Assembly: GCA_030700125.1 (NCBI GenBank)
Contig: JAUYKE010000021.1
Coordinates: 2,492 to 66,491, forward strand
DNA from: Candidatus Colwellbacteria bacterium
GTDB lineage: Bacteria; Patescibacteriota; Minisyncoccia; UBA6257; Colwellbacteraceae
Direction of reading: 5' to 3'
Length of the DNA: 64,000 nucleotides
A model generated the notes under the pieces. It was given only the letters and a program-made list of their open reading frames with translations. It made no database searches and was not told the origin of the DNA. Of this stretch, positions 56,562-62,609 are shown one piece after another (position 1 is the stretch's first letter; each line of letters begins with the position of its first letter). The position numbers were made by a program, and so were the translations under genes.

Positions 56562-58046
56562 ATGCCTGTTAAGAATCAAGAGAAAAATTTCCAGCATCGT
56601 CCCCCGGTAGTAGCTGTGGTGGGGCATGTTGATCACGGCAAAACCACTCTTTTGGACTACATTAGAAAAACCAATGTCGCTACCAAAGAGGTCGGCGGCA
56701 TTACTCAATCGACCGGTGCCTATGAGATAGAACACTCTTCGACAAGCTCAGGGCAAGCTCACAAAATTACCTTCATTGATACCCCGGGGCATGAGGCATT
56801 TTCCCTGATGCGGGCTCGGGGTGCTGCCGCCGCCGACTTGGCTATCTTAGTGGTAGCGGCTGATGAAGGGATAAAGCCCCAAACAACGGAAGCGATCGGA
56901 ATTTTAAAAAGCACGGAAACACCGTTTATCGTTGCCATAACCAAGATTGATAAACCAAACGCCAACATTGATAAAGTTAAAAACGAACTTCAGAGCGCCG
57001 AGGTTTTACTCGAGGGCTACGGGGGTGATGTTAGCTGGCACGGTGTCTCCGGAGTTTCCGGCGAAGGGGTTAATGAACTTCTTGATTTAATTGTGCTTAC
57101 CGGTGAGGTTGCCGGTCTTACTTTTGATCCAGAAGCCAAGGCAAGAGGGTTCGTTATTGAATCGAGGAAAGAAAATCGACGGGGAATTATTGCTCACCTT
57201 GTTTTGAAGGACGGAGTGCTCAAGGCGGGAGAGAACATCGCTACTCCTAGCGCCTCGGGCAAAATAAAAATACTGGAAGATTTTCTTGGCCACCGAGCTA
57301 AGGAACTTTGGCCATCCGCTCCGGCACTCGTAGTCGGATTTGAAAAACTTCCTCGAGCCGGAGAGGAGTTTACGGTTGGCAAGACTAATACGCCTCAAGT
57401 TAAAATTACGCCGGCACCAAAAACTGCCGCCCCCAAGAGAGGCAAGCCTCTCAACTTTAGAGTAATTCTAAAAGCTGATACCACCGGCTCATTAGAAGCG
57501 ATGGAAGCACTACTCAAGAATTTAGTGGAGATTGGAGAAGCGTCGGTCGGTGAGATTTCAGACAGTGACGTGAATTTTGCCAAATCTACCAAGAGTGTGA
57601 TCGTCGGATTCAATGTTCTGCCCGGCAAGTCCGCTGCCCGACTAGCCGATGCCCAGCGAGTTAAGATTATTACTTCAAGCATTATCTACAAAGTGGCAGA
57701 TGCGGTCTCCGAAATGCTGAAAGCGGAGGAAGAAGAAAAAATCAAAGGGTCACTGGAGGTCATGGCTGTCTTTAGTATTGCCCGCGCGAGAAAAACAATC
57801 GGAGGCAAAGTGTCAGAGGGCGTACTTAGGGTCGGCAATAATGTTGAGATCGAGCGAAACACGGCCGCCCCTGATGGGGGCGAGCCTCGCCCAGAAGCTG
57901 GGCGGGAGGTAGTCGGAAAGGGTAAAATCACGAATCTTCAGCGTGACAAGGAAGATGCAAGAGAAGTGCCTCAAGGGAATGAGTGCGGACTTGTTGTTGA
58001 GACCCCCGTTAATATAGAAGTTGGAGACACCTTAAAAGTGGTTTAA
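56562..58046 (+). CDS. infB: translation initiation factor IF-2 (short form lacking long N-terminal region)
   Basis: G-domain VVAVVGHVDHGKTTLLD, DTPGHEAF, ITKIDK; beta-barrel domains; followed by rbfA. Confidence 0.85.
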   Translation: MPVKNQEKNFQHRPPVVAVVGHVDHGKTTLLDYIRKTNVATKEVGGITQSTGAYEIEHSSTSSGQAHKITFIDTPGHEAFSLMRARGAAAADLAILVVAADEGIKPQTTEAIGILKSTETPFIVAITKIDKPNANIDKVKNELQSAEVLLEGYGGDVSWHGVSGVSGEGVNELLDLIVLTGEVAGLTFDPEAKARGFVIESRKENRRGIIAHLVLKDGVLKAGENIATPSASGKIKILEDFLGHRAKELWPSAPALVVGFEKLPRAGEEFTVGKTNTPQVKITPAPKTAAPKRGKPLNFRVILKADTTGSLEAMEALLKNLVEIGEASVGEISDSDVNFAKSTKSVIVGFNVLPGKSAARLADAQRVKIITSSIIYKVADAVSEMLKAEEEEKIKGSLEVMAVFSIARARKTIGGKVSEGVLRVGNNVEIERNTAAPDGGEPRPEAGREVVGKGKITNLQRDKEDAREVPQGNECGLVVETPVNIEVGDTLKVV

Positions 58047-58411: not shown

Positions 58412-58483
58412 GGCCTGGTAGCCAAGTGGTAAGGCAGGGGACTGCAAATCCCCTACACGCGGGTTCGATTCCCGCCCAGGCCT
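58412..58483 (+). tRNA. tRNA-Cys (anticodon GCA)
   Basis: GGGGA-CTGCAAA-TCCCC anticodon arm. Confidence 0.8.
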
Positions 58484-58550
58484 CCCTGGAACAATTGCTT
58501 TGCAATTGTTCGGGCGATCAAGCGCCTACGCTTGATTTAGCCGTTGATTT

Positions 58551-58631
58551 GCCTGGGTGGTGGAACGGTATACACGCATCACTTAAAATGATGTGCCGAA
58601 AGGCATGTGGGTTCGAGTCCCACCCCGGGCA
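58551..58631 (+). tRNA. tRNA-Leu (anticodon TAA), long variable arm
   Basis: CATCA-CTTAAAA-TGATG anticodon arm; spacer to tRNA-Cys contains two perfect hairpins. Confidence 0.8.
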
Positions 58632-58733
58632 CTGCTAAACAACTCAAGGAAATTTTCCCAGAATTTTCGCGCGATTATTTTTAATTAGCGGAGATGCTGG
58701 ATGCTCTTATATCACATATGATATACTTGCCGT

Positions 58734-60251
58734 ATGACGCATATTTCGGAATGGGCAAAAATTGGCAGTAAAATTACCGCACATCGTGAGCAGAAGGGTA
58801 TGACCCAAGCTGGGCTTGCCCGGCTTCTAAAAACGAGTCAAAGCGCCGTTGCCCGAATGGAGGCAGGCGAACAAAATTTCAGCACCGGGACGCTTTTAAA
58901 AATCGGCAAGATTCTTGATAAAGAGTTAATTACTCTTTCCGATGAAACAGTTAATTTTAAAGTTGAAGGCGGCCACAAGCTAAAAGGGGAGGTAAAAGTA
59001 AATACCTCAAAAAACGCCGCTGTCGCGCTGCTTTGCGCTTCGCTCCTCAACAAAAATAAAACCGTCTTAAAGCGAATGCCTCGAATTGAAGAAGTCTATC
59101 GAGTGATTGAAGTGCTCGTTAGCTTGGGTGTTTCGATTAGATGGCTTGGCAATGATGTTGAAATTATTCCGCCGAAGAAAATCAATCCGCGGCATATCAA
59201 TGTTGAAGCGGCAATGAAAACCCGGAGCGTGCTTCTTCTCTTGGGGCCGCTAATTCATTTATTGCCGGCCTTTAGAATTCCTCAACCGGGGGGGTGTAAG
59301 CTCGGCGGGAGAACTGTCCGACCCCATCTTCTTGCCCTGGAGAAACTGGGAATAAAGATTGATACCAAAGCGAATTATTACGAAGTCTTGCACAAGAGAC
59401 TTCGACCGGCGGAGATTGTGCTCTACGAATCGGGCGACACAACTACGGAAAATGTTTTAATGGCGGCCGCCAAGATAAAGGGTAAAACTGTAATCAAGTT
59501 TGCTTCGGCTAACTATATGGTCCAGGATCTTTGCGACTTCCTTACCCAATTGGGGGTAAAGATAGACGGGGTCGGGACAACTACCCTTACGGTCTATGGC
59601 ACTCCGGAAATAGACAAGCCGATTACTTACTACCCGAGCGAAGATCCGATTGAGGCGATGCTTTTCCTCTCAATCGCCGCCACCACCAACTCTTCAATAA
59701 CCATAAAGGGCTGTCCGATTGATTTTCTCGAGCTTGAACTCTTGAAGTTGGAAAAAATGGGCTTCAAATTCAAAATCTTGAGGCGCTATAAATCCGCCAA
59801 CAATTTCACTAACTTGGTAGATATCCGGACTCTCCCTTCGAAGCTCCATGCCCTGGAAGAGAAAATTTACGCCCGGCCTTTTCCGGGACTAAATATCGAT
59901 AATCTCCCTTTCTTCGTGCCGATTGCCACCCAAGCGGAAGGTCAAACTCTGATTCACGACTGGGTGTACGAAAATAGGGCCATCTATTATATGGAGCTAA
60001 ATAAGCTTGGGGCTGACATTATTCTGGCTGATCCGCACCGCATCTATGTTAATGGACCGACCAGACTAACCGGAGCTGAAATAATCTGCCCGCCGGCTCT
60101 CCGGGCAGCGGCTATTATTTTAACCGCCATGCTCGCCGCCTCCGGCACCTCGGTTTTGCGGAATGTTTATTCAATTAATCGCGGCTACGAGGATCTGGCT
60201 AACCGATTAGGTAAACTGGGAGCGCGGATTAAAACATTACGTAGTTTTTAA
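58734..60251 (+). CDS. murA: UDP-N-acetylglucosamine 1-carboxyvinyltransferase (MurA) with an N-terminal XRE-type helix-turn-helix domain fusion
   Basis: N-terminal ~65 aa GMTQAGLARLLKTSQSAVARMEAG HTH; then full MurA (KLKGEVKVNTSKNAAVALLCASLL…, active-site loop PQPGGCKLGGRTVRPH, C-term …RGYEDLANRLGKLGARI). Confidence 0.8.
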   Translation: MTHISEWAKIGSKITAHREQKGMTQAGLARLLKTSQSAVARMEAGEQNFSTGTLLKIGKILDKELITLSDETVNFKVEGGHKLKGEVKVNTSKNAAVALLCASLLNKNKTVLKRMPRIEEVYRVIEVLVSLGVSIRWLGNDVEIIPPKKINPRHINVEAAMKTRSVLLLLGPLIHLLPAFRIPQPGGCKLGGRTVRPHLLALEKLGIKIDTKANYYEVLHKRLRPAEIVLYESGDTTTENVLMAAAKIKGKTVIKFASANYMVQDLCDFLTQLGVKIDGVGTTTLTVYGTPEIDKPITYYPSEDPIEAMLFLSIAATTNSSITIKGCPIDFLELELLKLEKMGFKFKILRRYKSANNFTNLVDIRTLPSKLHALEEKIYARPFPGLNIDNLPFFVPIATQAEGQTLIHDWVYENRAIYYMELNKLGADIILADPHRIYVNGPTRLTGAEIICPPALRAAAIILTAMLAASGTSVLRNVYSINRGYEDLANRLGKLGARIKTLRSF

Positions 60252-61213
60252 TTTGAAGCGCACGTATTAAACGCAGCTATCTGGTTGTTATATCGACTAA
60301 TTATAGTTCTGGTTTCGCCTATAAGGTTGTTGTACTCCTTAACAAGTAAGTTGTAGGTTTCGACTTTAGTGTTGTAATCGGGATCCGTATCGGGGTCACT
60401 TGCCTCAATTTCCGACTTTAAAACGACCAGTTTGTCTCTCATGTCGGCTAGCTCAAGTTTATTCTCGTCAATCGAGCGGCTGAGGGCGGCATCCGGCCTG
60501 GGGCAATCGGAAACGGGCTTGCCAAAATGCTGGACTGCGAGCCAAGTTGATCGTCCTTCAAAAACGCATCTTGTTACCCCGACTCCGATTTCGGTGAAGC
60601 GGGAGTTTAGAATATTGGCTCGGTGGCCGGGACTATTCATCCAAGCTTCAACCACAACTTGGTCGCTGGTAAAAGAGCCAAGGGCCAAATTTTCCCCAAC
60701 TGAAAGATAGTCATAGCCAAAACTGTCAGCTAAATCCCCTGATCCAACCCCGCTTGGTGAAGTGTGGGCAAAGTATTGTTTCTCGCACATATCGTCAGCT
60801 TTCTTTCCAGCCATGGCATTTAAGATAACGTTTTCTTTAAGAAACCCTATGCTGTTTTCTTGTCTTTGAAGATTAGTTTGGAGGATAATGCCCGATTGGG
60901 TTAAGCCGGAGACAGGTCCCGGCTCCGGCGTTGGCTCTGGCGTCGGCGGCGGAGTGGTAACACGGAGAGGTGCGGGAGCAGAAACTTCTTTTTTGGGTTC
61001 TATCGGTTTTGCTCCGGGAGCTTTGGGTAAAGAAGGGAGCTCTTGTTGAATTAAACCTTTTCTATCGGCCTCCTGGTTACCCTGGGTTGCCTCTTTTTCT
61101 ACCCTCGCGTTTTGTCCATCTTCGAGGCTCCCTGATGGTGCTTTTTCCTTTTGGTAAATTAAAACGGCCCCTAGGAGGACAATGAAAATGGTAAATAAGA
61201 GTCGCAGTTTCAT
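60248..61213 (-). CDS. secreted CAP/SCP (PR-1-like, YkwD-type) domain protein with Pro-rich linker
   Basis: Signal-anchor, PPPTPEPTPEP linker, CAP motifs (…AHTSPSG…SPGHRANILN…). Confidence 0.65.
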   Translation of the reverse strand: MKLRLLFTIFIVLLGAVLIYQKEKAPSGSLEDGQNARVEKEATQGNQEADRKGLIQQELPSLPKAPGAKPIEPKKEVSAPAPLRVTTPPPTPEPTPEPGPVSGLTQSGIILQTNLQRQENSIGFLKENVILNAMAGKKADDMCEKQYFAHTSPSGVGSGDLADSFGYDYLSVGENLALGSFTSDQVVVEAWMNSPGHRANILNSRFTEIGVGVTRCVFEGRSTWLAVQHFGKPVSDCPRPDAALSRSIDENKLELADMRDKLVVLKSEIEASDPDTDPDYNTKVETYNLLVKEYNNLIGETRTIISRYNNQIAAFNTCASN

Positions 61214-61907: not shown

Positions 61908-62609
61908 ATGGCTAAAATTCTCTCGCCCCGACACGTTGCTATTATCCCTGACGGAAATCGGCGGTGGGCGAAGCGCCGCGGGTTTCCCAGCTGGAGGGGA
62001 CACTTCGAAGGCGCTAAGCGGATGGAAGAAATTGCCCGAGCGGCAGTTGATCTAGATATCAAATACTTCACCCTTTGGGGCGGATCTTATGACAACCTCA
62101 CTAAGCGGTCAAAAGGGGAAATTATTGTTTTAAACCGGGTCTACAAAGAGCTGGTGCGAAAACTGCTTAAGGATAAAACTATCCATGAAAATAAGGTAAG
62201 AGTGAGGTTTCTAGGTGAGTGGCCGAAGTTATTGGATAAAGGAGTGGTTGAAGCCATTAAGAGAGCCGAGAGAGAAACTGCCCGATACACAGGTTATGAA
62301 CACTCATATCTTATTGGATATAACGGGGATCGGGAGATGTTGGATGCCATGAATCGGCTTTTAAAAACCGGCCACGGGCGGGTCACCGCTCCACTATTAA
62401 AATCATATCTCTGGACTGCTGATCTGCCACCGGTTGACCTAGTAATAAGGACTGGCGGCGAGCCTCATCTTAGTAATGGCTTTATGATGTGGGATGCGAG
62501 AGATGCCCAGCTCTATTTTACCGATAAGTTTTGGCCTGACTTTACCAAGAAAGAGCTCATCCTCGCACTTGAAGATTATTCTCATCGGGAACGGAGGTTT
62601 GGCCGGTAG
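61908..62609 (+). CDS. uppS: undecaprenyl diphosphate synthase (cis-isoprenyl transferase)
   Basis: HVAIIPDGNRRWAKRRG… and C-terminal RFG motif. Confidence 0.9.
   Translation: MAKILSPRHVAIIPDGNRRWAKRRGFPSWRGHFEGAKRMEEIARAAVDLDIKYFTLWGGSYDNLTKRSKGEIIVLNRVYKELVRKLLKDKTIHENKVRVRFLGEWPKLLDKGVVEAIKRAERETARYTGYEHSYLIGYNGDREMLDAMNRLLKTGHGRVTAPLLKSYLWTADLPPVDLVIRTGGEPHLSNGFMMWDARDAQLYFTDKFWPDFTKKELILALEDYSHRERRFGR

Follow-up and report, generated by a model that had tools for sequence, protein, structure and literature searches.

BirA couples biotin activation to repression of the bio operon; its DNA-binding fold is a winged helix-turn-helix (HTH), while that of PutA is a ribbon-helix-helix. Other regulators combine an HTH with a domain of enzyme-like fold, namely an aminotransferase-like domain in MocR/GabR proteins and a kinase-like domain in ROK repressors. 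Control of MurA, the UDP-N-acetylglucosamine (UDP-GlcNAc) 1-carboxyvinyltransferase, is known mostly at the protein level, through proteolysis, PASTA-kinase signalling, and feedback by UDP-N-acetylmuramic acid (UDP-MurNAc). Streptomyces has two UDP-GlcNAc transferases, with murA2 present beside murA; murA2 (SCO5998) is published as a divergent pair with acnA (SCO5999), and a DmdR1 box is predicted upstream of it (PMC12161575). The murA2 promoter is bound by BldM-WhiI and its expression drops in bldM and whiI mutants during development (PMC4125116); over-expression of murA2 gives no exploration phenotype (PMC11005364). These three papers describe murA2 simply as a UDP-GlcNAc transferase and mention neither an HTH nor a palindrome. 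The subject here is a gene of the same family in a 64-kb stretch of DNA from a Candidatus Colwellbacteria bacterium (contig JAUYKE010000021.1, positions 2,492 to 66,491; the whole stretch is called the window, and coordinates are counted within it), which joins an XRE-type HTH to a MurA body and is preceded by an 18-bp palindrome. From its sequence, this gene probably codes a bifunctional protein of the BirA, PutA, and NadR kind: a MurA enzyme which is predicted to act also as an autorepressor through the palindrome as its operator. The features concerned are:

58734-60251, plus strand: HTH-MurA fusion open reading frame (ORF), 505 amino acids (aa), ATG start, TAA stop at 60249-60251.
58734-58928, plus strand: XRE/Cro-C1-type HTH domain, aa 1-65, from Pfam HTH_3 and AlphaFold2 helices.
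58917-58952, plus strand: flexible linker from the HTH to the MurA body, aa 62-73, with a low predicted local distance difference test (pLDDT) score.
58953-60239, plus strand: MurA domain, aa 74-502, from NF006873, Foldseek, and the alignment to E. coli MurA.
59295-59297, plus strand: TGT codon of Cys188 in the loop PQPGGCKLGGRT, the equivalent of E. coli Cys115.
58708-58725, no strand assigned: 18-bp palindrome TATATCACATATGATATA, candidate operator, arms TATATCA and TGATATA around a 4-nt centre.
58719-58727, plus strand: extended -10-like element TGATATACT (TGnTATACT) in the right arm of the palindrome, read by eye.

The original prediction described this gene as an XRE-type HTH joined in frame to a complete MurA, and the description holds: the 505-aa frame is present in the ORF list with exactly these ends, and comparison to HTH and MurA profiles gives matches to both, namely Pfam HTH_3, Pfam EPSP_synthase, and the NCBIfam MurA subfamily model NF006873. 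A TGA in the same frame at 58719-58721, shortly 5' of the ORF, makes the ATG at 58734 the earliest start available; around the domain junction no in-frame ATG, GTG, or TTG for an HTH-less isoform was seen when the sequence was inspected by eye.

The EPSP_synthase (PF00275) match of the enzyme half covers aa 77-491 (E 1.7e-49), and NF006873 is passed with 348 bits against a cut-off of 297. The best-matching solved structures are all MurA, with 5ujs at the top (E 4.8e-60); the AlphaFold2 model of the protein has a mean pLDDT of 86.3 and reaches target-normalised Foldseek TM-scores of 0.91-0.94 against solved MurA structures. Judged by these profiles, the protein is a member of a divergent MurA clade. 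In an alignment to E. coli MurA, the sequence of which agrees in its numbering with the published residue numbers, K22, N23, R91, C115, and R120 correspond to K93, N94, R164, C188, and R193, and D231, D305, R331, R371, and R397 correspond to D304, D389, R415, R457, and R483. Not one of these ten active-site or structural residues varies among 81 family members (the window protein and 80 genome loci), which points to selection for catalysis. K22, R120, and R397 bind phosphoenolpyruvate (PEP) in MurA, and the catalytic-loop position 115 is either Cys or Asp; Cys115 of the E. coli enzyme is the catalytic residue and the target of fosfomycin. The catalytic residues and the fold together predict that the enzyme half looks active.

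In the HTH half, aa 17-65 match HTH_3 with 40.2 bits (cut-off 23; E 3.5e-10), and HTH_31 is passed as well (32.7 bits against 27). Helices are predicted by AlphaFold2 at aa 6-20, 25-31, 36-43 (the recognition helix, SQSAVARM), and 51-61; block means of pLDDT are 85-90 across aa 11-40 and 69-74 across aa 41-60. The peptide GMTQAGLARLLKTSQSAVARMEAG, by which the original prediction had recognized the domain, is found in the translation and spans the predicted HTH from helix 2 through the turn to recognition helix 3. Across 43 homologues T24, Q25, S35, Q36, S37, R41, E43, G45, Q47, and N48 are invariant; the motif TSQSA(V/I)xR(M/I)E is retained from Patescibacteria to Streptomyces, the longer segment G-x-T-Q...T-S-Q-S-A-V-x-R-x-E-x-G-x-Q-N is nearly invariant over the same range, and the HTH ranks among the best-conserved stretches of the fusion protein. 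This segment resembles helix 2-turn-helix 3 of phage 434-type repressors, and the HTH half is predicted to be what it looks like, a working DNA reader. In the linker that follows, pLDDT averages 54 over aa 61-70 and lies below 50 from aa 66 to aa 70; among orthologues its length is constant and its sequence variable, and in the AlphaFold2 model the HTH is not docked on the MurA body.

The same fusion is found in all of the nearest 120 homologues and in 77 of the 80 best genome loci, the latter sampled as one genome per GTDB species. The homologues, drawn from NCBI, JGI, ENA, and Logan and assigned to Colwellbacteria, Liptonbacteria, Tagabacteria, Doudnabacteria, and Paceibacterota, are 67-100% identical to the window protein and about 500-530 aa long, and each has both Pfam domains; one of them (P0001), from a Candidatus Colwellbacteria metagenome-assembled genome (MAG) and named MurA, is 100% identical. 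Those loci that code the full fusion belong to Parcubacteria, Saccharibacteria, and cultured Actinomycetota. Fusions in genomes labelled Saccharibacteria are 56-68% identical to the window protein, and those of cultured Actinomycetota (among them Streptomyces, Nocardioides, Actinopolymorpha, and Nostocoides) are 54-57% identical over aa 8-505, under the NCBI names MurA or "helix-turn-helix domain-containing protein". The architecture of about 500-510 aa occurs in hundreds of independent assemblies, including complete genomes of cultured Streptomyces, Nocardioides, Actinopolymorpha, and Nonomuraea. The fusion had been called unusual, which stands in comparison to the textbook MurA and fails for the databases, where it is common. 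A separate small HTH gene beside a normal murA, the arrangement that the original prediction had set against a true fusion, is not seen at L015, L019, and L088-L090, the loci of HTH-less relatives at which no adjacent HTH gene is present.

The palindrome at 58708-58725 ends 8 nt 5' of the ATG at 58734. Even when up to three mismatches are allowed, it has no second match in the window, with 0.02 occurrences expected by chance; a symmetrised position weight matrix (PWM), which was built from 20 orthologue upstream sites and scanned over all 80 loci, scores it at 29.5 bits against 10.6 for the runner-up site in the window. The centres of the two arm cores, ATATC and GATAT, are separated by 11 bp, or about one helical turn, which is the spacing expected for a dimer on one helix face. 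The -10-like element in the right arm ends 6 nt 5' of the ATG with no intervening Shine-Dalgarno sequence, a sign that the mRNA may be leaderless or have a very short leader; at the matching position orthologous loci have TGATATAAT, TGATATACT, or TGATATATT. A simple scan found no canonical two-hexamer -35/-10 promoter at the palindrome site, and the promoter call is therefore a putative one, made from the extended -10 read by eye. The PWM scan gave no convincing further operator of a regulon in the window. Its runner-up site, CATATCTTATTGGATATA at 62305-62322, is probably a chance match; it lies inside ORF 61908-62609, likely uppS (undecaprenyl-diphosphate synthase, an identity read from the translation), a gene of the cell-wall lipid-carrier pathway.

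The palindrome has the consensus TATAtCAtAtaTGATATA in low-GC Patescibacteria-type loci and cATCTCATATcTGAGATA in high-GC Actinomycetota loci. The two arms shift jointly between these clades, from ATATCA/TGATAT in Patescibacteria to ATCTCA/TGAGAT in Actinomycetota, with the recognition helix nearly constant. A covariation of residue 40 (A or N) with the arm base (ATATCA or ATCTCA) was considered and is unsupported, as Saccharibacteria-type N40 proteins use ATATCA-type sites. In six Patescibacteria loci (L004-L007, L003, L018) the upstream region between 60 and 160 nt holds a second, weaker copy of the palindrome, which lies 60-140 nt upstream of the first or overlaps it, the layout expected of cooperative binding to tandem operators. 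Three loci (L008, L021, L022) have record titles that appear at odds with their content; L008, for example, is labelled "uncultured Gammaproteobacteria" and yet has a Patescibacteria-type protein (65% identity) and an operator of low-GC type. Taxon labels from automated binning are therefore considered unsuitable for inferring the range of the HTH-MurA family.

HTH and palindrome co-occur strictly across phyla. The PWM gives 76 hits of at least 15 bits in the 80 loci, each no more than 160 nt upstream of the gene, and none in the remaining 556 kb of these loci or in shuffled sequence. Within each locus of about 7.5 kb, the highest-scoring hit lies no more than 100 nt upstream of the start in 76 of the 77 HTH-bearing loci and reaches at least 15 bits in 70 of them. 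Close relatives that do not have the HTH also do not have the palindrome: three were among the 80 loci (L011, L015, L019; 67-69% identity) and three were fetched additionally (L088, L089, L090), and in the 200 nt before the start of these six genes there is no palindrome and the best PWM score is negative (70/77 versus 0/6; Fisher's exact test, p = 4.5e-6). L088, a Patescibacteria locus, has the gene order infB-rbfA-tRNA-Cys-murA as in the window, minus the HTH and the palindrome. The infB-rbfA synteny was considered as a shared trait of the fused orthologues and rejected; within the available flanks only the HTH-less L088 matches. Two HTH-bearing loci are exceptions: at L010 the recognition helix (TKQSVIAR) is diverged and the site is a weak, diverged one of 9 bits, and in L038, from a Dermatophilaceae MAG, Q47 is replaced by R and the palindrome is undetectable.

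It is proposed that two copies of the protein would set their HTH heads on both arms of the 18-bp palindrome TATATCAcataTGATATA. The right arm may double as the extended -10, and bound protein would then keep RNA polymerase off; the palindrome overlaps the -10 and ends 8 nt from the ATG, therefore exclusion of the polymerase should be expected. MurA output would in this manner be held by negative feedback through repression of its own gene. As an extension of this mechanism, the MurA body may serve as a sensor, with its open or closed, ligand-bound state altering dimerisation or the availability of the HTH; candidate ligands are UDP-GlcNAc, PEP, and UDP-MurNAc, the last of which is a known feedback inhibitor of MurA. 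DNA binding, the sign of the regulation, dimerisation, and ligand control are all inferred; ligand sensing by the MurA body would be a likely extension, suggested indirectly by the dead full-length MurA-like body that is kept in regulator-only relatives (below).

Several observations weigh against an enzyme-repressor. MurA enzymes are generally monomers, and no dimerisation element is visible in the AlphaFold2 model, which also predicts four helices in the HTH rather than the usual five of XRE domains. The strict murA equivalog model TIGR01072 is missed (332.9 bits against 392.7), as is the equivalog model NF009470 (239.6 against 552). Six HTH-bearing loci score below 15 bits and L038 has no site. 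The right arm is a good extended -10, and its conservation could in part be promoter conservation; the symmetric changes in the arms would equally keep an RNA or DNA hairpin. A second MurA may be coded in this organism beyond the 64-kb window, in which tblastn found neither a second copy nor other mur genes. Finally, the 77 loci are mostly Streptomyces and the samples are not independent; therefore it is the agreement across phyla which bears the weight.

Relatives that appear to be catalytically dead provide a separate view of the HTH and the palindrome. Six full-length fusions at 32-46% identity (P0127, P0129, P0139, P0149, P0158, P0241; representatives of clusters at 50% identity) retain TSQSA(V/I)xRIE-G-QN and, C-terminal to the HTH, a MurA-like body of full length (about 430 aa). 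None of the six still has R91 or the Cys115 loop, R120 and R371 are gone in most, and P0127 falls under the MurA subfamily cut-off (234.6 against 297). Four of the six degenerate genes lie between divergent mur operons, with murD/E/F-murA-murB on one side and the degenerate fusion gene followed by murC/ddl on the other. At L081, L084, L085, and L087 the degenerate gene is divergent from an operon with a separate bona fide MurA of 437-452 aa, which in those checked (L081, L084) keeps the Cys loop or passes NF006873; MurB is coded in three of the four divergent operons, and those of L085 and L087 also contain between one and three Mur ligase genes. A Ddl and/or a Mur ligase is coded directly 3' of the fused gene at L081, L084, and L085, and a Mur ligase about 350 nt downstream at L087. 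At L083 (4685-7554) the degenerate gene is the third of an operon, behind a NUDIX hydrolase and a sugar-1-phosphate nucleotidyltransferase with a GlmU/MurU-like N-terminal domain; near the degenerate gene of L086 no mur genes were seen.

The six degenerate loci were left out of PWM construction, and the palindrome is present in all of them. It scores 20-22.6 bits at L081, L085, L086, and L087, where it ends 0-12 nt before the start, and 13.1 bits at L084; L083 has two palindromes (20.5 and 14.5 bits), one ahead of the first operon gene and one ahead of the second. In four of the loci the site is found in the intergenic region that separates divergent mur operons, and it lies beside or overlaps promoter-like elements such as TTGACA (L081, L085). 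Degenerate relatives thus keep the HTH and the palindrome near mur genes, which suggests that the regulatory role outlives catalysis and is tied to the genes of peptidoglycan precursor synthesis. The layout of L083 hints that the regulon extends to nucleotide-sugar supply. The reverse of the pseudoenzyme case is seen in P0130 (529 aa, from a Logan assembly), in which the MurA body has all ten catalytic residues and the HTH motif is degenerate; its N-terminal extension reads ITLEEQLGMEQE where others have TSQSAVARMEAG.

The strongest alternative is plain autoregulation: the HTH would repress its own promoter and buffer the level of MurA, the ligand state would be irrelevant, and the fusion would merely ensure a 1:1 ratio of regulator to enzyme. 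The operator evidence fits this explanation equally well as it fits sensing; furthermore, the linker is flexible and of low confidence, the HTH does not dock on the MurA body in the model, and there is no other strong site in the window. However, the degenerate relatives in mur clusters retain the body of about 430 aa, which is hard to explain if the body has no regulatory use such as ligand binding or dimerisation; plain autoregulation is regarded as possible, on the doubtful side.

The closest described protein, Streptomyces MurA2 (SCO5998 / SVEN_5810 / vnz_28735), belongs to the same family as the window protein and has the same architecture; it is 508-509 aa long, shows 54% identity to the window protein across aa 8-505, HTH included, and has all catalytic residues. 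Its genes bear the palindrome of their clade, cATCTCATATcTGAGATA, 8-12 nt before the start, and the reverse complement of a published SVEN_5810 footprinting primer, CTGAGATAACGTGACGCCATGGC, reads as the right palindrome arm and then the start codon. An aconitase gene runs divergently from the fused gene in the Streptomyces loci, which matches the published SCO5998/SCO5999 pair (PMC12161575). In 25 of 25 Streptomyces loci with a visible acnA (25 loci within L030-L079; for example L055:2813-2828), another palindrome, ATCTCGAT(A/G)TCGAGAT, precedes the acnA start by 106-181 nt, and it holds this position regardless of the distance to murA2 (126 to about 2200 nt). Its outer arms, ATCTC...GAGAT, and their spacing are those of the murA2 palindrome, and it could serve MurA2 as a second target or belong to a different factor.

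Streptomyces also provides the model for a second alternative, that the window protein is mainly a regulator or an accessory paralogue and the housekeeping MurA is coded elsewhere. It is the fused one of the two Streptomyces UDP-GlcNAc transferases that is murA2 (PMC12161575), a developmentally controlled BldM-WhiI target (PMC4125116); in addition, the pseudoenzyme relatives coexist with a separate true MurA, and the window protein misses the strict equivalog model. Against this stand the ten catalytic or structural residues, invariant in 81 members, and the HTH-less gene of L088, which holds the same infB-rbfA-tRNA-Cys position in another Patescibacteria genome; nor is there a second MurA in the window. 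Named relatives of the stand-alone MurA of the degenerate loci are confined to Collierbacteria, WWE3, and a few further taxa, with none in Parcubacteria or Saccharibacteria, a distribution consistent with the fused form serving as MurA in these last two groups. Streptomyces murA2 is a second paralogue beside murA; in the small-genome organism of the window the fused protein may instead be the sole MurA, and an accessory role is considered unlikely.

A third alternative, judged improbable, separates the palindrome from the HTH: the palindrome would act as a promoter element or a hairpin, or would bind another factor, and the HTH would serve in protein-protein contact or nucleoid tethering. The identity of the right arm with the extended -10 and the preservation of a hairpin by the symmetric arm changes are as this explanation would have it, but the left arm, which is dispensable for the -10, is equally conserved, and the motif is lost exactly where the HTH is absent (0/6 versus 76/77). 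Specific bases are kept across phyla beyond what pairing needs, at locus G+C contents from about 30% to over 55%, and the HTH keeps base-reading residues of 434/Cro type, Q opening helix 2 and SQS opening helix 3, as in the 434 repressor. An assembly or annotation artefact, in which two genes were merged by a sequencing indel, is an a priori possibility for any metagenome-assembled genome and nothing more, and is ruled out because the fusion, with the same junction, is kept in independent assemblies, including the nearest 120 of 120 homologues, and in Actinomycetota isolate genomes.

The gene surroundings agree with the original prediction, which had placed the fusion immediately after a tRNA pair; both tRNA genes lie directly 5' of the ORF on the same strand:

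58412-58485, plus strand: tRNA-Cys, upstream of the HTH-MurA ORF.
58551-58632, plus strand: tRNA-Leu, upstream of the HTH-MurA ORF.

The pair is preceded by rbfA and a short infB; the infB product (56562-58046) has 494 aa and does not have the long N-terminal region of typical bacterial initiation factor 2, and a short form of infB (498 aa) is also found before rbfA in L088. On the 3' side the neighbours of the fusion gene, on the opposite strand, code a CAP-domain protein and a flavin mononucleotide (FMN) reductase. The TAA stop of the fusion gene (60249-60251) overlaps by 4 nt with the end of the convergent ORF 60248-61213, the product of which (321 aa) combines a Pro/Thr-rich N-terminal region with a CAP/SCP domain; between the two genes no terminator-like site was found.

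If the enzyme-repressor reading is true, a direct transcriptional feedback loop would be built into the MurA enzyme. The same module is present in uncultured Patescibacteria, where gene regulation is almost unexplored, and in the genetically tractable Streptomyces as murA2; therefore the prediction is directly testable. More tentatively, HTH-MurA can be hypothesized to be an ancient and hitherto unrecognised family of transcription factors for cell-wall precursor synthesis in Patescibacteria (candidate phyla radiation, CPR) and Actinomycetota, of which the body would sense a UDP-sugar or PEP and the HTH would read the 18-bp operator; the same tentative reading includes a series from a plain enzyme, through enzyme-repressors such as the window protein and Streptomyces MurA2, to a dead regulator of divergent murA-murB/mur-ligase operons. 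If this wider reading is true, the protein and the palindrome would be the first defined pair of transcription factor and operator for peptidoglycan precursor genes in CPR bacteria, and in Streptomyces development a layer of control would be added for murA2 and possibly acnA. The catalytically dead relatives in mur clusters suggest such a route from an enzyme to a dedicated pathway regulator. Some Saccharibacteria are epibionts on Actinomycetota, and the shared, highly specific operator raises the question of gene flow between Saccharibacteria and their host Actinomycetota.

The principle of an enzyme-repressor fusion is already known; what appears to be new is a cross-phylum HTH-MurA family with a conserved cis-element, as a full-text literature search found no description of the HTH-MurA fusion or of its operator. 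From its predicted domains, the window protein resembles the trigger enzymes BirA, NadR, and PutA in having a DNA-binding domain and a metabolic enzyme in one chain. BirA-type systems have a palindromic operator on the promoter of their own pathway, and the window palindrome has the corresponding position, with dimer binding inferred for the latter. The window protein differs from BirA and PutA in its XRE/Cro-type fold and in its enzyme and pathway, which are those of peptidoglycan synthesis; ligand-dependent DNA binding is the defining property of BirA, while the likeness of the window protein to it lies in the domains and the operator position. Canonical MurA (E. coli, E. cloacae; PDB 1uae, 1naw) agrees with it in fold and in active-site residues, the Cys115 loop among them; however, identity is about 30%, and the window protein adds an N-terminal HTH and linker of about 73 aa as well as some 14 inserted residues around aa 366-379. 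NikO of nikkomycin biosynthesis (PDB 4fqd), from Actinomycetota, shares the enolpyruvyl transferase (MurA) fold but is far more distant from the window protein (E 1.4e-19 versus 4.8e-60 for MurA; 23% identity); its match is confined to query aa 76-500, with no sign of an equivalent HTH, and nothing evident connects it to the operator. The pseudoenzyme regulators of the MocR/GabR and ROK types are matched by the six degenerate relatives only; unlike these regulators, the window protein retains every catalytic residue.

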